Positions 3,749-60,302 of a stretch of 64,000 nt of DNA are shown here, piece after piece. The first letter of the stretch is position 1. Each line of letters opens with the position of its first letter. The translations under genes and the position numbers were made by a program. Origin of the DNA: Minisyncoccia bacterium (GTDB taxonomy: Bacteria > Patescibacteriota > Minisyncoccia > UBA6257 > 2-01-FULL-56-20); NCBI GenBank assembly GCA_050015515.1, contig JBEKBG010000002.1, positions 18,777 through 82,776 of the forward strand. The letters run 5' to 3'. The notes under the pieces were generated by a model, which was not told where the DNA came from, made no database searches, and worked only from the letters and a program-made list of their open reading frames with translations.

Positions 3749-4174
3749 TTGATGTATGATCCGGCGTTTCAATTTGAGCGTGAAAAAATAGAAAATGAAG
3801 CGCGAGAAACTTATAACAAAATCGGGCATGTTTGGTCGCCCGTATTGAATGGCCATATTTCATTTAAGAGTGCCGGTTTTCGCCATTTGATGTGGAAAGG
3901 AGGAAAACGTCGGCCGTATACACAGCAAATAAAACGACTCTCATTGATCGCATATGCAGCTAAAATAGTTTCCGATCCGAAAGCGCGGGTCATTGAGCGA
4001 GAAGAAATGCGTGATTCACTGATCAAGCGTGCCGGGGTGAAAATCATAATTAAGGCCCCGGTTCGTTTTTGGGCCTTTCATGCAAATATAGAAAGAAAAA
4101 ACATACGAGTAATTGTGAGGCAGGTCAGTAATGGGAGTAAGCACTTTTTCAGCATTTTTGAGGAAGAGAAATAA
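3749..4174 (+). CDS. hypothetical protein, paralog of 10553..10963 (conserved HLMxKxGKRR … FW … IVLRQ … KHFFSI)
   Basis: 141-aa basic protein; clear alignment to the ORF at 10553-10963; inserted between rpsG and fusA. Confidence 0.6.
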   Translation: MMYDPAFQFEREKIENEARETYNKIGHVWSPVLNGHISFKSAGFRHLMWKGGKRRPYTQQIKRLSLIAYAAKIVSDPKARVIEREEMRDSLIKRAGVKIIIKAPVRFWAFHANIERKNIRVIVRQVSNGSKHFFSIFEEEK

Positions 4175-4817: not shown

Positions 4818-6935
4818 ATGCCCCGACAATATTCCATCGAGAAGACCCGCAACATCGGCATCATCGCGCACATCGATGCGGGTAAGACGACCGTCAGTGA
4901 ACGCGTGCTTTTTTATACCGGCGTTTCGCACAAGATCGGCGAGGTGCACACGGGCGACACGGTGATGGATTGGATGGAGCAGGAACGCGAGCGCGGCATC
5001 ACGATCACGAGCGCCGCGACGACCGCGTTCTGGACGCCCACGTATCACGCCGCGGGTCCCGACCATAAAAACTTCGAGCACCGCATCAACCTGATCGACA
5101 CTCCGGGCCACATTGACTTTACCGTGGAGGTAAAGCGCTCGCTGCGCGTTTTGGACGGCGCGGTCGTCGTATTCGACGGCGTCGCCGGCGTGGAGCCGCA
5201 GTCGGAGACCAACTGGCGCTACGCGGACGATTACAAAGTGCCGCGCATCTGCTTTATCAACAAGCTCGACCGCGCCGGCGCGGACTTTGAAAAGAGCTTC
5301 AAGTCCATCCTTGACCGCCTCACCCAGAACGCGATCCCGATCCAGCTGCCGATCGGCACCGAGGCGAACTTTAGCGCGGTCGTGAACCTGCTCGAGAACA
5401 AGGCGTATACCTTCGAAGGGGAGCACGGCGAGAATATCGTAGAGATCCCGATCCCGGCAGATATGATGGAGACGGTGGCAAAGCATCGCCATGATCTCAT
5501 CGAAAAGATCGCGGAGAACGACGACATCGTGATGGCGAATTACTTGGACGGAAAAGAGATCTCACTCGAGGACCTTCGCAAGACGTTACGCAAAGGCGTC
5601 ATCGCAAACACGATCGTGCCGGTCATGTGTGGTTCGGCGCTCAAGAACAAAGGCGTGCAGTTTATGTTGGATGCCGTCATCGAATACCTGCCGTCGCCGG
5701 CGGACATGCCGCCGATCATGGCGCATGACGAAAAGACGGGCGAAATTGTGCCGGTCAAGCTTACCGACGAAGAGCACTTTGCGGGTTTGGCCTTCAAGAT
5801 CGCAACGGATCCGTTCGTAGGAAACCTGGCGTTCTTCCGCGTCTATGCCGGCGTCCTTAAGAAAGGCTCGTATGTGTATAACTCCACGAAGGGTCAGCAG
5901 GAGCGCGTCAGCCGTATCGTCCGCATGCACGCGAACGACCGCGAAGAAGTGGACGAGGTCTACTCCGGCGAGATCGCCGCAATCGTGGGCTTAAAGGGCA
6001 CCACCACCGGCGACACATTGTGCGATCCGGATCACGCCGTCATTTTGGAAAAGATCACGTTCCCGGAGCCGGTCATCGGGTTGCGCATCGAACCGAAGAC
6101 AAAAGCGGACCAGGAGAAGATGGGCATTGCATTGCATCGCTTGGCGGAAGAAGATCCGACGTTCCGTGTGGAAGGCGATAACGAGACGGGGGAGACGATC
6201 ATCTCCGGCATGGGCGAATTGCACTTGGACATCATCGTGGACCGCATGAAGCGCGAGTTCAACGTCGGCGCAAACGTGGGTCGGCCGCAGGTGGCATACC
6301 GCGAAACGATCACGGCGGAAGCCGAGGGCGAAGGCAAGTACATCAAGCAATCCGGTGGACGCGGTCAGTACGGTCACGTTAAGTTGCGCGTAAAGCCGGG
6401 AGAAAAAGGCTCGGGATTCGTGTTCGTTGACGCAATCAAAGGCGGTTCCATTCCGAAAGAATTCATCAACCCAACAGAGAAAGGCGTCAAAGAAGCGATC
6501 GATAAAGGTATTGTCGCCGGCTATCACATGGTAGACGTGGAGGTAGAGCTCTACGATGGTTCGTTCCACGAGGTGGACTCTTCCGAAGCGTCATTCAAGA
6601 TCGCGGGTTCCATGGCATTCCAGGACGCAGCCAAGAAAGCCAAGCCGGTCATTCTCGAACCGATCATGAAGATCCAGGTCATCGTGCCGGACAACTTCAT
6701 GGGCGAGGTCACGGGCAACGTCAGCGGCAAGCGCGGCGCCATCGAATCGATCGACGATCGTCCGGGTCAGCTCAAGGTGGTGAATGCCAAAGTGCCGTTG
6801 TCCGAATTGTTTGGTTACGCTACCGAGCTTCGCTCGATGTCACAGGGGCGTGGTTCATTTACGATGGAATTTGATCACTACGAGGCGGCACCGCGCAATG
6901 TGACGGAGCAGATTATTGAGGGGAAGAAGCGCTAA
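4818..6935 (+). CDS. fusA: elongation factor G
   Basis: [17 protein letters not shown], full EF-G domain order; 705 aa; about 12-aa insertion after switch region. Confidence 0.97.
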
Positions 6936-7059
6936 AACAATATAGGGCACATGCTTTTGAAAGGACGGCGTTCCAGCCTGCTGGCTGGCCGCCTTGGCTC
7001 TCGCCGCCTTCGCGGCTCCGAGACACCTTTCAAAAGCATGTGCCCTATGTTGTTTTAGC
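6931..7059. repeat. long palindromic element, family 1 (34-bp arms plus conserved about 60-nt core)
   Basis: Arms GCTAAAACAATATAGGGCACATGCTTTTGAAAGG / reverse complement (1 G-T mismatch); 5' arm contains the fusA stop codon; core ACGGCGTTCCAGCCTGCTGGCTGGCCGCCTTGGCTCTCGCCGCCTTCGCGGCTCCGAGAC. Confidence 0.8.
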
Positions 7060-7151
7060 GACCCGTTTCAGAGTGATCTGCGGCACGGTGTTCTTGGGCC
7101 GGAGATGAAGGTAGTCTAGCGAATTAATAAGTGCTAACATGTTAAATATAG

Positions 7152-7883
7152 ATGAAAAAAACACCCTCAAAAATCAAGGTTATTGATCTATTTTGTGGTA
7201 TAGGAGGCTGGATCGGGGGGACGCGACCGGACAACGCTCGCTTCGTTCCGCCACCGGTGGATGACATGAAGCGTTCTCTTTCGGATCTCGAGAGTTTTAT
7301 GTATGCGGAAGATGCGACGCTGACCGTCATTAAGGCGGGTCTTTTGCATGCGCAATTTGAGACCATCCATCCGTTCCTTGATGGTAATGGAAGAACGGGA
7401 CGGATGCTCATCACATTCTATTTGTGGAAAGAAGGGTTTTTGGAAAAGCCTGTTTTGTTTTTATCCTCATATTTTAAAGAACATCAAAAGGTCTATTACG
7501 AAAAGCTTTTGTGCTATCACGAGGGAAAGGTTTCTGAGTGGATTGAATTCTTTTTGGATGGGGTTATTGAGATCGCCAATGAAGCAATCGATATTGTTGG
7601 GAAAATAACGAAGCTTAGAGAAGGGGATACGGAAAAGGTTCAAGGCCTTGGCAAGCGCGCATCGGAAAGTGCAATGAAGGTATTGCCCAAGCTTTATGGC
7701 CAACCGATCGTCAACGTGAGTCTTGTTCAGCGGTGGACCGGTTTTACCCGTGCCGGAGCACAAACCGTCATTGATCGGTTTATCGAGCTTGGCATTCTCT
7801 CCAAGAAGGATAAGGACAAGAAATATGGGCAGTCTTATATTTATAAGAAATACGTGGGCTTATTTTCTGATAGCGCCGCGTAG
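7152..7883 (+). CDS. Fic/DOC family protein (HPFxDGNGR motif) with C-terminal wHTH-like region
   Basis: AQFETIHPFLDGNGRTGRMLITFYL matches the Fic active-site motif HxFx(D/E)GNGRxxR; short N-terminal region suggests possible 5' truncation. Confidence 0.65.
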   Translation: MKKTPSKIKVIDLFCGIGGWIGGTRPDNARFVPPPVDDMKRSLSDLESFMYAEDATLTVIKAGLLHAQFETIHPFLDGNGRTGRMLITFYLWKEGFLEKPVLFLSSYFKEHQKVYYEKLLCYHEGKVSEWIEFFLDGVIEIANEAIDIVGKITKLREGDTEKVQGLGKRASESAMKVLPKLYGQPIVNVSLVQRWTGFTRAGAQTVIDRFIELGILSKKDKDKKYGQSYIYKKYVGLFSDSAA

Positions 7884-7933
7884 TTTGCGTTGGAGCGCAG
7901 CGAGGACTCCTGTGCGGGCGAGGGCGCTTCGCG

Positions 7934-7998
7934 ACCGTGCCGAAATCCAACCCTTCACGGGGAAGATGCTTCTTTATCTCAACTGCCGCGATTGCGGC
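7934..7998 (+). promoter_or_regulatory. partial duplicate of SAM-I riboswitch 3' half plus terminator hairpin
   Basis: GACCGTGCCGAAATCCAACCCTTCACGGGGAAGATGCTTCTTTATCTCAACTGCCGCGATTGCGGCATTTTT is about 90 percent identical to 9318-9372 in the complete riboswitch. Confidence 0.45.
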
Positions 7999-8090
7999 AT
8001 TTTTAGTTCCTTTCTTTGGGGGTATCGTTGTCACTATCCCTGCGGCGATCGTGGGGATCATTTTAAGATTAAAACCTCATTAAAAGAGTT

Positions 8091-8119
8091 TTGACTTTGG
8101 TACTGGGTGGGCGGACAAT
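8091..8119 (+). promoter_or_regulatory. promoter TTGACT-N17-GACAAT, -10 ends 7 nt before ATG 8126 (leaderless)
   Basis: TTGACT 8091-8096; the same AAGTTTTGACTTTGG promoter module recurs at 10441 and 17742. Confidence 0.45.
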
Positions 8120-8125
8120 GATGAT

Positions 8126-8980
8126 ATGGAAAAGAAAAAAAGAGAACAGAATACTCATCCGACGATCTTTGAAGAGAAAGAGGTTCGAAGAACCTGGCAT
8201 GATGAAAAGTGGTATTTCGTTATAGCAGACGTGGTGCAGATTCTTACCGATTCGAAAGATGTTCAGGGGTATATTAAGGATATGAGACGGCGAGATCCGG
8301 AGCTATCCCAAGGGTGGGGGCAAATTGCCACCCCCCTTGGGATTGAGACCGCTGGAGGAAAGCAAAAAATGAATTGTGCTAACTTGGAAGGCATCTTTCG
8401 TATTATTCAATCCATTCCTTCCCCAAAGGCGGAGCCATTTAAGCGCTGGCTCGCCAAGGTCGGCAAGGAAAGGATCGAGGAAATCGCAGACCCCGAATTG
8501 GCGGTAACGCGGACTAAAGAGATTTACGACAAAAAAGGATATCCAAAAGATTGGGTTGATAAGCGCATGCGAGGCATTGCCGTCCGAAATACGCTTACCG
8601 ACGAGTGGAAATCGCGGGGAGCGTCGATGAGCTTTGAGTTTGCGATTTTAACCGACGAGATTTACAAGGCGGCATTTGATAAGACCGCGAAAGAATATAT
8701 GAAGCACAAAGGGTTGGATAAAAAAGCGGGTGATAATTTGCGCGACCATATGGGAGACATTGAATTGATTTTGACGATGCTTGGAGAAGCGACGACGACC
8801 AAGCTCAGCACGGAAAAAGATTCGCATGGATTGGAAGCGTTAAAGAATGATGCGCAAATTGGGGGAGGCGTCGCCGGCAGGACTCGAAAAGATATCGAAC
8901 GGCAAACGGGCAAAAAGGTAATTTCAAATGAGAATTTTAAAAGCCGGAAGCTTTTGAAAGGCAAGGAAATTCGCAAGTAA
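8126..8980 (+). CDS. Bro-N domain protein / phage antirepressor-like
   Basis: FEEKEVRRTWHDEKWYFVIADVVQILTDSKD fits the Bro-N (KilA-N-like) pattern F..E.R....DGE.WF.A.DV..LG; 284 aa. Confidence 0.55.
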   Translation: MEKKKREQNTHPTIFEEKEVRRTWHDEKWYFVIADVVQILTDSKDVQGYIKDMRRRDPELSQGWGQIATPLGIETAGGKQKMNCANLEGIFRIIQSIPSPKAEPFKRWLAKVGKERIEEIADPELAVTRTKEIYDKKGYPKDWVDKRMRGIAVRNTLTDEWKSRGASMSFEFAILTDEIYKAAFDKTAKEYMKHKGLDKKAGDNLRDHMGDIELILTMLGEATTTKLSTEKDSHGLEALKNDAQIGGGVAGRTRKDIERQTGKKVISNENFKSRKLLKGKEIRK

Positions 8981-8981
8981 T

Positions 8982-9251
8982 ATGTCCCAGAAAACCAGGA
9001 TCAAAAAGAATTTAGCGCTGTCGGCAGATTTCAACGCGTATATTTTGAGAAATCCGAAAGTGATGGATAAATTACCCAGGAAGGTCTGTATCGTTTTTGA
9101 AGACAAAAAGGACCAAATTTTTTCGCGGGCAAACTTGAACACGGCAAAAGATATTGCGAATAGCGAGAAATGTTTCGTTGCGAGTAAGTCTGGGTCTCGC
9201 TGGTCTTTGCGTCCGCTCGCCGTATGCTATAATCATCTTACAACCGAATAG
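8982..9251 (+). CDS. hypothetical small protein
   Basis: 89-aa ORF immediately after the Bro-N gene; no recognisable motif. Confidence 0.25.
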   Translation: MSQKTRIKKNLALSADFNAYILRNPKVMDKLPRKVCIVFEDKKDQIFSRANLNTAKDIANSEKCFVASKSGSRWSLRPLAVCYNHLTTE

Positions 9252-9397
9252 CCCATCAAGAGAGTGGAGATGCTAAGGGATCTGGCCCGATGCTCCGCCC
9301 GCAACCGATCGACGATTCGACACGGTGCGAAATCCAACCCTTCACGGGGAAGATGCTTCTTTTAGATCAACTGCCGTGTAGGCGGTTGTTTTTTTGC
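9252..9397 (+). promoter_or_regulatory. SAM-I (S-box) riboswitch with intrinsic terminator, upstream of metK
   Basis: CCATCAAGAGAGTGGAG..GGGATCTGGCCCGATG..CCGCCCGCAACC..GGTGCGAAATCC..GGGGAAGATGC matches S-box conserved blocks (ATCAAGAGAGG, GGGAYTGGCCCGATGA, GCAACC, GGTGC.AATTCC, GAAGATG); terminator CAACTGCC-GTGTA-GGCGGTTG plus T7. Confidence 0.8.
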
Positions 9398-9455
9398 TCT
9401 TTTACAACTTGGGTCGAAAAGCTGGGTTACCAATTAATTAATCAATCAAACTATT

Positions 9456-10409
9456 ATGATAAAAACTGCGGAGTTTGTTTCGCCTCGGCATCCGGATAAA
9501 TTGTGCGACCTCATTGCGGATTCACTGCTCGATGCGTATCTGGCGGGGGATCCAAAGAGCCGCGTGGCGGCGGAGGTGATGGGTGGCCATGGGCACGTCA
9601 CGATCTCGGGGGAAGTGACGAGCGCGGCGTCGGTGGATATTCCAATTGTCGTGCGTTCCGTGCTGGGCTATGATGCGGCGGTGCATGCGTATCTTGTGCG
9701 GCAGAGTCCGGAGATCGCGCAGGGCGTGGATACGGGCGGCGCGGGAGATCAGGGCATTATGATCGGCTATGCCACGCGGGAGACGCCGTCGTTCCTACCG
9801 TTGGAATATGTGTTGGCGCGGGAGCTGTGCCGGAAGTTGTATGCCGTGTATCCGTATGACGGGAAGACGCAGGTAACGGTGGATGGTGATCGCGTGACAT
9901 GCGTCGTCGCAAGCTTTCAGAACGCTCCATCTGCCGCGCTTGAGGCGCTTGTGCGCGCATCCATAGTGGCGGACGAGTATCTGGTGAATCCCGCGGGCGA
10001 ATGGTCGCTCGGCGGCTTCGATGCGGATTCGGGGATCTCCGGGCGCAAGATCGTGATCGATAATTACGGGCCGGAGATCGGCGTGGGCGGCGGATCGTTC
10101 TCGGGCAAGGATCTCACCAAAGTGGATCGGTCGGGCGCATACATCGCGCGGCGCATCGCGGTGGATTACCTGGCGCGATTTTCGTCCGCGCGGGCGGTGC
10201 GTGTAAAGCTCGCGTACGCCATTGGCAAGCCACAGCCCGTCATGGCCGTGGCGGAATTAAGCGAGGGTTCCGGCGGTGTTCGCGTTGTGCCCGTTTCTGA
10301 TTACGACCTTACTCCTTCCGGCATCGCCACGCTTTTGAAGTTCTCTTCCGTGCGCTGGGCCGACACCGCCGCGTGGGGACACTTTGGGAGGGAGTTCAGC
10401 TGGGGATAG
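9456..10409 (+). CDS. metK: S-adenosylmethionine synthetase (short form, 317 aa)
   Basis: HPDK near N-terminus, GAGDQG, GGGSFSGKD..KVDRSGAY, GHFGR motifs. Confidence 0.85.
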   Translation: MIKTAEFVSPRHPDKLCDLIADSLLDAYLAGDPKSRVAAEVMGGHGHVTISGEVTSAASVDIPIVVRSVLGYDAAVHAYLVRQSPEIAQGVDTGGAGDQGIMIGYATRETPSFLPLEYVLARELCRKLYAVYPYDGKTQVTVDGDRVTCVVASFQNAPSAALEALVRASIVADEYLVNPAGEWSLGGFDADSGISGRKIVIDNYGPEIGVGGGSFSGKDLTKVDRSGAYIARRIAVDYLARFSSARAVRVKLAYAIGKPQPVMAVAELSEGSGGVRVVPVSDYDLTPSGIATLLKFSSVRWADTAAWGHFGREFSWG

Positions 10410-10450
10410 TGCCAGCTACTGTCGGAGATTAAAAAAATATTAAAAAAGTT

Positions 10451-10479
10451 TTGACTTTGGCGTTGAATTGCTTAGAATA
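10451..10479 (+). promoter_or_regulatory. consensus promoter TTGACT-N17-TAGAAT for sRNA 10486..10570
   Basis: TTGACT 10451-10456, TAGAAT 10474-10479. Confidence 0.55.
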
Positions 10480-10485
10480 GAAACA

Positions 10486-10570
10486 TGCTCGTAGGGCGTC
10501 GGCAGCTCCTGCCCAATCGGCTCACGCTGGTAGCGAGCATATCAAATAACCGTCACATGGCGGTTTTTTG
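10486..10570 (+). ncRNA. candidate convergent small RNA overlapping the 3' end of 10553..10963
   Basis: About 85-nt transcript with nested stems (ATGCTCG…CGAGCAT), terminator hairpin AACCG-TCACATGG-CGGTT plus TTTTTT (10565-10570); overlaps the last 18 nt of the minus-strand gene. Confidence 0.35.
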
Positions 10571-10963
10571 ATTCTTTGGTTTTGTATCATAAATACTGAA
10601 GAAATGTTTTTCTTTGCCTTCGATTTGCCTTAAGACGATCGTGATCGTGGCATCGCCATATGTCTTGGTCAGTTTCCAGAAATCGGCGTGCGGTTTCTTT
10701 ATCACCGCCATGTCGTGCCGTTTTGAGAAATGGACAGTTTCTCCTTCCCCATGAGAAATTTTTACCTCTTGGCTTTCAATAATTTCTTTCGCATAAGGCA
10801 GGAGACGAAGCCTTCTCGCTTGCTCTCGCAGTGAACGCCGCTTCCCATTTTTCCGCATAAGATGTTGGATTCCGGCATTGGTAAAAGCAACATAGTCGTT
10901 CAGCGCCGAACACCAAACGCGGCCGACATTTTTATAAGAATCTCCTATGTTTTTATCCTCCAT
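10553..10963 (-). CDS. hypothetical protein, paralog of 3749..4174
   Basis: 136-aa basic protein sharing VW..LN..F..AG..HLM.K.GKRR…FW…IVLRQ…KHFFSI with the first copy. Confidence 0.6.
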   Translation of the reverse strand: MEDKNIGDSYKNVGRVWCSALNDYVAFTNAGIQHLMRKNGKRRSLREQARRLRLLPYAKEIIESQEVKISHGEGETVHFSKRHDMAVIKKPHADFWKLTKTYGDATITIVLRQIEGKEKHFFSIYDTKPKNQKTAM

Positions 10964-19930: not shown

Positions 19931-20053
19931 CTTTCTTATGCTTTTTGAGGGACTATCGGAGGCCGCGAAGGCGGCCGAGATGGAGCGCCCGCGCAGCAGC
20001 GCGGGACGCGTGCCCGAAAAAAGCATAAGAAAGGAGGAAGGGCCGGAGCCCAT
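19931..20053. repeat. long palindromic element, family 1 (inverted core orientation)
   Basis: Arms GCCCTGCCTCCTTTCTTATGCTTTTT / AAAAAAGCATAAGAAAGGAGGAAGGGC; core reverse complement contains GGCCGCCTTCGCGGCCTCCGA and CCCGCGCTGCTGCGCGGG hairpin. Confidence 0.75.
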
Positions 20054-30305: not shown

Positions 30306-30412
30306 AACACCCCTCCTTTGAAAGGACGGCGTTCCGGTCTGCTGACCGGCCGCCTTGGCTCTCGCCGCCTTCGCGGCTCCGAGACACCTTTCGAAGGAAG
30401 GGTGTGTTATTC
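30300..30412. repeat. long palindromic element, family 1 (near-identical core to 6931-7059)
   Basis: Arms GAATAAAACACCCCTCCTTTGAAAGG / CCTTTCGAAGGAAGGGTGTGTTATTC (3 mismatches); arm includes the secY TAA; core differs from the fusA copy only by compensatory CCAGCC…GGCTGG to CCGGTC…GACCGG. Confidence 0.8.
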
Positions 30413-60173: not shown

Positions 60174-60302
60174 CCAGAAAAGGACAAGCCCAGTACATTC
60201 TTTTGAGGGTATGCCGGAGCCGCGAAGGCGGCGAGGCGTAGCGATTTTTCAGTAGAAAAATACGCGACCCTCAAAAGAATGTACTGGGCTTGTCCTTTTC
60301 TG
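60174..60302. repeat. long palindromic element, family 1 (inverted core orientation)
   Basis: 35-bp perfect arms CCAGAAAAGGACAAGCCCAGTACATTCTTTTGAGGG / reverse complement; core reverse complement contains CTCGCCGCCTTCGCGGCTCCGGC. Confidence 0.8.

Follow-up and report, generated by a model that had tools for sequence, protein, structure and literature searches.

Tandem riboswitches are arrangements in which a single leader contains two complete riboswitches or two aptamers. The locus described here is similar insofar as relatives of the organism carry two to three complete SAM-I (S-box, RF00162) units on one strand. However, each of these units has its own promoter and terminator and they are split by accessory genes with promoters of their own, so that they do not form one leader sharpening the control of one gene; in the window (the whole stretch of 64,000 nucleotides that was analysed), the second unit is broken. 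Another parallel is provided by the partial 3' duplications of tRNA and tmRNA genes at the ends of integrase-borne genomic islands, where accessory DNA beside a conserved gene is likewise bordered by a directly repeated 3' portion of a structured RNA. In such islands the intact gene comes first, at the 5' end, and the partial copy lies at the far end. This order is reversed at the locus described here, which has no integrase and in which the repeat is most probably a decayed full-length copy. With defence-island hotspots between core genes the locus shares a varied defence cargo in one interval and truncated genes that mark past rearrangements. Unlike the usual hotspots, this one lies inside the str ribosomal-protein and elongation-factor cluster of a CPR bacterium, and a riboswitch module is co-amplified with the cargo. 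Integron cassette arrays differ in that no integrase is present in any locus examined here, the repeated unit being a riboswitch module rather than an attC-type site. A literature search yielded no description of riboswitch units copied two or three times and punctuating an accessory-gene array, and searches on PDC-S13 (a candidate defence family represented at this locus), on SAM riboswitches in Patescibacteria/CPR and on riboswitch links to SAM lyase or defence found nothing relevant.

The riboswitch that precedes metK, together with its gene, is composed as follows.

9225 to 9233, forward strand: extended -10 promoter (TGCTATAAT) of the metK riboswitch, right edge of a variable island
9250 to 9357, forward strand: intact SAM-I aptamer, recognized by a full-model RF00162 match, a lineage model and covariation in the family
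9368 to 9395, forward strand: riboswitch terminator, an 8-bp stem (hairpin 9368-9388) followed by T7, from terminator scan and fold
9456 to 10409, forward strand: metK, short 317-aa form, with three S-AdoMet synthetase Pfam domains

The preliminary description of this DNA had placed a complete S-box aptamer with its terminator in front of metK, and rightly so. The aptamer matches the whole RF00162 model (positions 1-108) with 39.2 bits (E 7e-7). It is absent from a default Rfam scan because this score is below the Rfam gathering score of 44.4, a consequence of the 6-nt P2 insertion and the short P1 that set this lineage apart from the family model; with a lineage-specific model the score is 102.8 bits. 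In 70 Patescibacteria metK leaders, compensatory (double) changes occur at 12 of the 14 predicted pairs. They support helices P2, P3 and P4, and the junction nucleotides AUCAAGAG, GCAACC and GGUGC are present. The element at 9250-9397, which sits 60 nt before metK, has in common with described SAM-I riboswitches the four-helix aptamer, the conserved junction nucleotides, the position in a metK leader and the terminator/antiterminator platform, the predicted antiterminator being formed by pairing of the P4 5' strand with the 3' arm of the terminator. SAM binding and transcription switching by this element are predicted. The extended -10 is conserved as TG(C/A)TATA(A/C)T in every module copy as well as in L006, L007 and L012 (L numbers denote contigs, most of them from related strains), while the DNA on its 5' side is unrelated from locus to locus. 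All four components of the metK riboswitch (promoter, aptamer, antiterminator and terminator) are in place, so that the events described below should have left SAM control of metK as it was.

The 3' part of this riboswitch is repeated further upstream, as had been noticed earlier. The repeat is direct and brackets a segment with two accessory genes, and the elements from its upstream copy to the metK riboswitch are these.

7925 to 7988, forward strand: probable relic of a second SAM-I module, defined by alignment to 9313-9376 and as positional ortholog of the complete L165 and L170 modules
7984 to 8004, forward strand: hybrid terminator-like hairpin, TGCCGC-GATT-GCGGCA then TTTTT, from terminator scan (hairpin 7984-7999)
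7988 to 8083, forward strand: piece of a gene for a small membrane protein (codons 7-31), ending in a divergent tail with a stop
8065 to 8119, forward strand: Bro-N promoter, an A/T-rich upstream element, TTGACT, 17 nt and GACAAT
8126 to 8980, forward strand: Bro-N domain protein (PF02498) of the PADLOC candidate defence family PDC-S13, by profile match
8982 to 9251, forward strand: DUF5647 ORF (PF18882, 52.3 bits)

Positions 7941-7975 equal 9328-9362 exactly (35 nt), and local alignment extends the repeat to 7925-7988 against 9313-9376, with about 88% identity over 65 columns. The alignment score is 86, the maximum among 2000 shuffles being 28, and a 22-nt core of the repeat occurs twice in the 64 kb, where 0 occurrences are expected. 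The window stems from a metagenome assembly, which could raise the suspicion of chimeric assembly, or else the similarity might be fortuitous. Both explanations are next to impossible: the observed score is reached by 0/2000 shuffles, the same structure is found in independent ENA (L001/L004) and JGI (L002) assemblies and is therefore not an assembly artefact, and orthologous structures are present in at least six other contigs. The Logan contig L003 ends exactly within the 35-mer.

What remains of the upstream copy is J3/4, P4 and the P1 3' strand, followed by the linker and by the terminator's 5' arm. It lacks a promoter, the P1 5' strand, P2 and P3, and with them the complete four-way junction. 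Only the final 30-45 nt of an aptamer are left, and this is not a riboswitch: a covariance model search gives no Rfam match for 7925-7988, and the lineage model a mere 21.7 bits. With the P1 5' strand, P2 and P3 gone, binding of SAM by this fragment should be impossible. No displaced 5' half of an aptamer exists elsewhere in the 64-kb window. The exact position of the left breakpoint is uncertain, 7925-7940 being identical at only 11 of 16 positions. A decayed complete aptamer to the left of 7925 was considered and rejected; MAFFT produced a weak similarity reaching to 7880, for which local alignment was no better than shuffles (787/2000 reach its score). The 48 nt at 7941-7988 are identical to the clade consensus, although neutrality would be expected. 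This identity could mean that the truncation happened only very recently, that gene conversion has acted or that the piece retains a function of some kind.

At its right end the upstream copy runs into unrelated coding DNA. The fragment placed at 7988-8062 by tblastn is identical at 20 of 24 amino acids to an 88-aa ORF at L167 8628-8891, where the gene is intact. The hybrid hairpin shares homology with the riboswitch terminator in its 5' arm alone. Its 3' arm and T-run are supplied by the membrane-protein gene, the 3' arm and the next 60 nt being codons 7-31 of that gene. The minimum-free-energy fold of 7941-8010 keeps the hybrid hairpin, whereas the corresponding piece of a standard copy favours the antiterminator fold; according to fold prediction, modules with the hybrid platform appear to lack antiterminator complementarity. 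The hybrid hairpin with its U-run most likely behaves as a constitutive intrinsic terminator. The earlier proposal that the upstream copy now supplies a terminator behind the Fic-family gene is consequently probable as to function (predicted hairpin and T-run), but the stem is not, as had been assumed, part of the riboswitch repeat beyond its 5' arm. Another candidate, a second riboswitch-metK unit from which metK had been deleted (8005-8065 being the metK remnant), had as its sole support a 13-nt match of this spacer to the metK stop region of L007, a match reached by 90/1000 shuffles. It was rejected because the spacer proved to be the membrane-protein gene fragment.

The content of the bracketed segment had been correctly described as a leaderless promoter, a Bro-N gene and an 89-aa ORF, the latter now assigned to DUF5647. 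The -10 of the Bro-N promoter ends 6 nt before the ATG, as in leaderless mRNA, and the promoter is identical at 41 of 45 positions to one located after metK in L007. A resemblance between 8066-8100 and 10426-10460 was examined as a second specific duplication and stands up only in part; the combination of an A/T-rich element with TTGAC is a generic promoter architecture, of which the window has 7 copies. The Bro-N domain scores 49.4 bits (Pfam cut-off 25.6), and the protein covers positions 4-274 of the 286 of the PDC-S13 profile (E 1e-106). A homolog 80% identical to the window protein sits within a type I restriction-modification operon. The Bro-N/PDC-S13 protein is a candidate defence gene product. 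The final codons of the DUF5647 ORF overlap the riboswitch promoter; the L165 and L166 orthologs of this ORF measure 82 aa.

Comparison with sister Paceibacterota strains bears directly on the origin of the repeat. In these strains, two or three complete SAM-I units share one strand over 1-2.5 kb, with accessory genes (Bro-N, DUF5647, NYN, Zeta toxin) in between. The window segment 7925-9408 aligns to L165 109-1598 at 92.8%; in L165, a promoter and full aptamer are located at 21-173, directly upstream, and full-model Rfam matches cover 46-153 and 1441-1550. A complete module of promoter, aptamer and terminator precedes the same Bro-N/DUF5647 pair in both L165 (46-153) and L170 (1331-1438), and L170 and L166 have three full aptamer copies each. 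In L173, whose Bro-N is 98% identical, the module is cut at about aptamer nucleotide 25 by unrelated sequence, a truncation point other than that of the window, and this truncated copy has extra substitutions in P3. L167 retains the membrane-protein gene and has no aptamer. At some 118 other Patescibacteria metK loci, exactly one aptamer is found within ±6 kb, so the multiple copies are specific to this clade. L180 contains two complete S-boxes 380 nt apart, which are different alleles (102.8 and 72.9 bits); copies can therefore come from different lineages.

Because sister strains possess a full module at the orthologous upstream position, the 55-nt size of the repeat reflects secondary decay and not duplication of a target. 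The reading we hold with good confidence is that 7925-8004 is the dead remnant of a second promoter/SAM-I aptamer/terminator module, left as a recombination scar in a variable island. The preliminary description had mentioned a recombination scar as its alternative, and this fits the orthologous complete modules, the independent truncation in L173 and the scarred flanks.

The other origin offered at that time was a mobile Bro-N/DUF5647 cassette. By transposing or integrating site-specifically into the metK riboswitch, within its 3' half, the cassette would have created a target duplication of about 55 nt. This origin is highly improbable. It accounts for a direct repeat around a segment with its own promoter and two accessory genes. 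Bro-N genes are common on mobile elements, and the N-terminal domain of the window protein has matches among PHROG families with an anti-repressor annotation. However, insertion predicts the order complete aptamer, cassette, 3' half, metK, whereas the window has the reverse, with the downstream copy complete and equipped with its own promoter. The ORFs between and beside the repeats (Bro-N, DUF5647, the Fic fragment and metK) include no recombinase gene, inverted repeats are absent from the cassette ends, and a complete module stands at the upstream position in sister strains. Moreover, the right end of the upstream repeat is joined to the membrane-protein gene fragment rather than to cassette DNA. 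The two genes are not one fixed cassette either, since in L166 a riboswitch copy splits them (DUF5647, module, Bro-N), while in other strains Bro-N is directly followed by DUF5647. The Bro-N-less relatives L085, L177, L006 and L007 show no empty site consisting of one repeat without the element. A phage origin of the cassette was likewise rejected: viral contigs of IMG/VR contain no close Bro-N relative, and phage records gave just four matches of 39-46% identity. Two complete tandem S-boxes without inserted genes in related genomes had been named as the finding that would speak against a cassette, and what is seen comes near to this, with three complete S-boxes in L166 and the L180 pair free of any ORF between.

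The left flank of the scar bears marks of rearrangement as well.

6930 to 7102, forward strand: block conserved after fusA, with a hairpin of 35-nt arms, left edge of the variable island
7152 to 7883, forward strand: chimeric Dcm'::Fic' ORF, from a Pfam Fic match (55.3 bits), the PADLOC SoFic profile and alignment to 3eqx

The inverted repeat in the first of these (6930-6964/7026-7060) is 97% complementary, and 6954-7102 is kept after fusA in L007, L167 and L006. The second had been described as a Fic-family gene. The Fic domain stands; the gene is not intact, being a Dcm-headed chimera that retains about residues 150-362 of SoFic. Its head consists of some 22 codons of a cytosine-methyltransferase N-terminus (DLFCGIGG, Dcm motif I), and its body is equivalent to the C-terminal two thirds of a SoFic-type protein: in an alignment with the SoFic structure 3eqx (373 aa), residues 30-239 correspond to 155-362, and positions 146-359 of the 361 of the PADLOC SoFic profile are covered. 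The Fic motif HPFx(D/E)GNGR is present as HPFLDGNGRTGR. About 150 N-terminal residues of the full-length SoFic architecture (some 360-375 aa) are missing and the remaining part is joined to a methyltransferase N-terminus, so the Fic gene is truncated. L165 and L167 have RhuM-Fic genes near Bro-N; a relationship of the fragment to these was dismissed, as tblastn gave no match.

The interval from fusA to the metK riboswitch is, in this Paceibacterota lineage, a variable island with different defence or toxin-antitoxin genes in each strain. In L085 and L177, fusA is followed almost directly by the riboswitch and metK. In L006, L007, L012, L166, L167, L174 and L180, unrelated restriction-modification, toxin-antitoxin or defence genes occupy the interval, and the cargo between fusA and metK/tuf across strains includes SoFic, PDC-S13, GmrSD and Zeta-toxin genes. 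The truncated genes of the island (SoFic, NYN, the membrane-protein gene) indicate clearly illegitimate junctions.

The scar reading suggests the following course of events, whose order and mechanism we infer from a handful of metagenomic contigs. In the Bro-N (PDC-S13) clade, the whole module of about 175 nt is present two to three times, between accessory cassettes each with its own promoter. Module copies would have arisen or been reshuffled by segmental duplication, or by import of riboswitch-bearing segments from related strains, the probable agents being homologous and illegitimate recombination rather than a site-specific recombinase. In an earlier step common to L165, L170 and L173, the 3' arm of the terminator was replaced by the start of the small membrane-protein gene. 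In the strain of the window, the module before Bro-N has lost its promoter together with two thirds of the aptamer from the 5' end, the break being a deletion junction with an already truncated SoFic gene. The hybrid hairpin would now end Dcm'::Fic' transcripts ahead of the independent, leaderless-type Bro-N promoter.

A more specific model, which we regard as possible but doubtful, assigns the modules an active part in this exchange. Cassettes with a module on either side would loop out, or be imported from related strains with natural competence, and would then integrate by RecA-type single or double crossover within the module of about 175 nt. The result would be an integron-like array that needs no integrase, with the relic as one of its homology arms in decayed form. 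Consistent with this, all cassette boundaries in L165, L166, L170 and L174 fall on the edges of modules, on one side where the extended -10 starts and on the other 7-15 nt past the terminator, cassette order varies between strains (L166 versus the others), and two different riboswitch alleles stand in tandem in L180. Natural competence and the integration of DNA via homologous recombination have also been reported for Patescibacteria (PMC11665869). However, neither circles nor polymorphic junctions are observed among the few genomes at hand, many junctions are clearly illegitimate, and a single old duplication, with ordinary insertions and deletions thereafter, can give the same pattern.

Could the upstream copy be more than junk? 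According to this view, a complete SAM riboswitch controls read-through into Bro-N in relatives, and the fragment of the window keeps a regulatory role beyond termination. Complete modules with standard terminator and antiterminator do precede Bro-N in L166 and in L174, the latter having no metK nearby. Bro-N-proximal aptamers are 99-100% identical between strains despite only 64-72% identity at the 4-fold sites of Bro-N, and the truncated L173 copy carries its additional changes in P3. This is suggestive, not decisive, evidence that the copies in other strains may be maintained, since metK aptamer copies of closely related backgrounds are likewise highly identical. Furthermore, every riboswitch terminator of this kind is followed by a separate strong promoter ahead of Bro-N, antiterminator complementarity is apparently lost in the hybrid-platform modules, and SAM sensing would be precluded in the relic by the loss of P1 5' strand, P2 and P3. 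The view as a whole, for the relatives as for the window fragment, is therefore very unlikely. A combination of the last two ideas is something of a long shot. The complete modules before the type I restriction-associated Bro-N/PDC-S13 genes (L166, L174, L165, L170) would be functional in two ways, coupling defence-gene expression to SAM depletion, for instance by phage SAM-degrading anti-restriction enzymes, and serving as the 175-nt homology arm of an integrase-free exchange of defence cassettes; the fragment in the window would be a decayed unit of this kind.

For the window itself, the outcome is above all a correction, with the metK riboswitch intact, the repeat most probably a scar and the supposed antirepressor cassette a candidate defence gene (PDC-S13) in a defence and toxin-antitoxin hotspot. 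It also cautions that partial riboswitch matches can be relics. Beyond the window, what stands out is that an entire riboswitch unit of promoter, aptamer and terminator has been multiplied in sister strains, where it now punctuates accessory genes. If these copies are not functional, they provide a clear example of the duplication and decay of a regulatory RNA in recombination hotspots. If they are functional or drive cassette exchange, they would connect metabolite sensing with defence genes and with genome plasticity in ultrasmall bacteria, and this link would be new.

The window belongs to a Patescibacteria (Paceibacterota/Minisyncoccia) genome, and the feature under study lies within its str region, where the order of elements is:

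4818-6935, fusA
6930-7060, hairpin with 35-nt arms, directly after fusA
7152-7883, Fic ORF, 243 aa
7925-7988, partial riboswitch copy, then a promoter, between the Fic and Bro-N ORFs
8126-8980, Bro-N ORF
8982-9251, DUF5647 ORF
9250-9357, aptamer of the SAM-I leader, between the DUF5647 ORF and metK
9456-10409, metK
beyond metK, TspO and tuf

The preliminary description reported a direct repeat of the 3' part of the riboswitch, and this is borne out. A 35-mer at 7941-7975 recurs exactly at 9328-9362, and alignment extends the repeat to 7925-7988 versus 9313-9376, with a score that none of 2000 shuffles approaches. The 22-nt core occurs twice in the 64 kb, both times in the repeat copies. A Logan contig terminates within the 35-mer; the structure is identical in independent ENA and JGI assemblies, which excludes an assembly artefact. 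The metK leader aligns with the whole Rfam SAM-I model at 39.2 bits and is missed by a default scan because the gathering score is 44.4. A model derived from metK leaders of Patescibacteria gives it 102.8 bits, and across 70 such leaders compensatory changes occur at 12 of the 14 predicted pairs. The metK leader is thus assigned, from sequence and covariation, to the SAM-I aptamers. A terminator scan detects a hairpin followed by a T-run at 9368-9388 and at 7984-7999.

The repeat had tentatively been attributed to a mobile cassette (promoter, Bro-N gene and an 89-aa ORF, here the DUF5647 ORF) that integrated into the riboswitch with target duplication. Integration into the 3' half would leave the partial copy at metK, with the cassette between it and a complete aptamer further upstream. 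The order in the window is the opposite, and the downstream copy has its own conserved promoter. No recombinase gene is found among the ORFs between or beside the repeats, and no terminal repeats at the cassette. This reading is rejected. The alternative offered with it, a recombination scar, is correct, given the complete modules (units of about 175 nt comprising an extended -10 promoter, SAM-I aptamer and terminator) in related loci and the scarred flanks on both sides of the partial copy.

The decisive comparison is with sister strains, which, judged by alignment, share the Bro-N region of the window. Positions 7925-9408 are 92.8% identical to 109-1598 of the related contig L165 (here and below, coordinates after an L handle are those of the related contig itself). 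Just upstream of the aligned stretch L165 carries a complete promoter and aptamer (21-173), and full-model Rfam SAM-I matches lie at 46-153 and 1441-1550. Two other loci each have three complete modules, in the order module, Zeta toxin, module, Bro-N, DUF5647, module, NYN in L170 and module, DUF5647, module, Bro-N, module, NYN relic, metK in L166. In L174, a complete module precedes Bro-N in an interval that lacks metK. In L173 (Bro-N protein identity 98%), the upstream copy is cut elsewhere, at about aptamer nucleotide 25, by unrelated DNA. L180 harbours two distinct riboswitch alleles, 380 nt apart, 3' of decayed Bro-N and DUF5647 genes. The 55-nt size of the repeat is what remains of a 175-nt module after deletion.

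Both flanks of the partial copy are scars. Upstream, the Fic ORF corresponds, by alignment, to residues 155-362 of the SoFic structure (373 aa) and to positions 146-359 in the SoFic profile of PADLOC, and its N-terminal 22 or so residues carry cytosine-methyltransferase motif I (KVIDLFCGIGG); it is a truncated chimera. Downstream, riboswitch homology ends at 7988, in the 5' arm of the terminator, and 7988-8062 encodes IAAFLVPFFGGIVVTIPAAIVGII, with 20 of 24 residues identical to 8-31 of a membrane-protein ORF (88 aa) found intact in L167. Since the one stops where the other starts, the upstream terminator-like hairpin is a hybrid, its 5' arm riboswitch-derived and its 3' arm and T-run coming from the membrane-protein gene. 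No displaced 5' half of a second aptamer is present within the 64-kb window. In folding predictions, the 3' piece of a standard riboswitch alone favours an antiterminator, in which the 5' strand of P4 pairs with the loop and 3' arm of the terminator. In the hybrid this complementarity is lost and the terminator hairpin retained, so that the relic is predicted to terminate independently of SAM. The idea that the relic provides the Fic ORF with a downstream terminator is supported, being consistent with the predicted hairpin and T-run.

About 180 related loci anchored on metK and Bro-N were fetched, and in the comparison the gap between fusA and metK proves a variable hotspot. Riboswitch and metK follow fusA almost directly in L085 and L177; in L006, L007 and L012 unrelated genes (restriction-modification, XRE-Panacea toxin-antitoxin, HicAB, DUF2075 and DUF45) take up 3.7-5.4 kb, and L166, L167, L174 and L180 have GmrSD, MutH/Vsr/Dcm, type I restriction-modification and methyltransferase genes there. 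The left edge of the gap is conserved about 170 nt past fusA. Its right edge, kept in all of these loci, is the extended -10 promoter of the riboswitch (TGnTATAMT). In L166, which on the fusA side is nearest to the window (C-terminal 127 residues of fusA 99% identical), a tRNA gene at 512-584 lies immediately 3' of fusA, at the left edge of the defence island; no tRNA was found at the equivalent window position. In L085, a close relative with a 96% identical fusA, the riboswitch promoter and J1/2 junction (AAGAGAGT) at the aptamer 5' end are swapped for a GC-rich hairpin-like sequence at 5760-5800, and this metK riboswitch is probably dead. An NYN-domain gene is intact between riboswitch and metK in L165, L169 and L170 and survives as C-terminal relics at different places in L166 (11069-11233) and L167 (8882-9046), which indicates that insertions and deletions have recurred in the stretch from the riboswitch terminator to the metK start codon.

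The Bro-N gene, first described as an antirepressor, is better seen, from its homologies, as belonging to a defence island than as an antirepressor of prophage origin. Over its whole length the product fits PDC-S13, a candidate defence family of PADLOC (E 1e-106), and it also matches PHROG 15286, a family without assigned function, as DUF5647 also is. No close relatives were found in viral contigs, and phage records yield four matches only, at 39-46% identity. The Bro-N/PDC-S13 family is very large in Patescibacteria, and one homolog (80% identical) has hsdS and hsdR of a type I restriction-modification operon as its neighbours on either side. The coding region in the window contains, at 8305-8343, a near-perfect palindrome (arms of 19 nt, ATCCCAAGGGTGGGGGCAA / TTGCCACCCCCCTTGGGAT) that is conserved in L165, L167, L169 and L170.

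The layout of the Bro-N promoter (A/T-rich upstream element, TTGAC, 17 nt, -10, and ATG 6-7 nt past the -10) is generic in this genome and fits leaderless expression. Its motif, AAGATTAAAAAATCATTAAAA, occurs seven times in the window against 0.05 expected, at 2416, 4297 (-), 8065, 10425, 16651 (-), 17720 and 40055 (-). A TTGAC or TTGAT -35 and then a -10 follow at six of the seven sites, and an ATG 6-7 nt after the -10 at three or more (2416, 8065, 17720). It looks like a lineage-specific class of UP-element promoters driving leaderless mRNAs. Other elements in the window are:

6930-7060, 30317-30395, 60195-60235 (-) and 19938-19980 (-), long hairpin repeats with core CTGCTG...GCCGCCTTCGCGGC
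10425-10570, just 3' of metK, strong promoter TTGACT-16-TAGAAT, then an RNA of some 57 nt with a Y-shaped fold, and a terminator at 10548-10565
3749-4174 (+), before fusA, and 10553-10963 (-), after metK, paralogous ORFs of 136-141 aa with a weak match to LPD3 (large polyvalent protein-associated domain 3); L011 has more copies

The hairpins directly follow stop codons of highly expressed genes, fusA in the window and fusA, tuf or rpsJ in L007, L167, L006 and L085. They resemble REP or MITE-like elements, or large terminators; microRNA-precursor matches by Rfam on such hairpins in L166 and L167 are spurious. The RNA at 10425-10570, a candidate small RNA without an Rfam match, is 85% conserved at L167 10884-11000, there after Bro-N, and in L007 and L005 a different RNA follows a promoter homologous to that at 10425. 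Between the tandem riboswitches of L180 (7500-7760), a generic promoter precedes about 230 nt of non-coding sequence with a strong terminator at its end, which may be another small RNA.

How the modules multiplied can be framed in two ways. Riboswitch-bearing segments may have been imported from related strains, or module copies may have undergone unequal homologous recombination. The coincidence of cassette boundaries with module boundaries in relatives, the varying cassette order and the different origin of the two L180 alleles fit either route. On either route many illegitimate junctions are superimposed (truncated SoFic, NYN, membrane-protein gene). A single ancient duplication, with ordinary insertions and deletions afterwards, is another possible account. 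Between strains with 64-72% identity at the 4-fold sites of Bro-N, the Bro-N-proximal aptamers agree at 99-100%; for aptamers next to metK the figure at similar synonymous divergence is 93-95%. The difference is a hint of homogenisation or selection, not a decisive one, since the strains have close genomic backgrounds, as the L166 fusA illustrates.

Some 118 other Patescibacteria metK loci have exactly one aptamer each within ±6 kb, which makes module multiplication clade-specific. No description of riboswitch-module arrays of this kind was found in the literature searched. It is these arrays of the sister strains that are unusual; the feature in the window is an ordinary relic.
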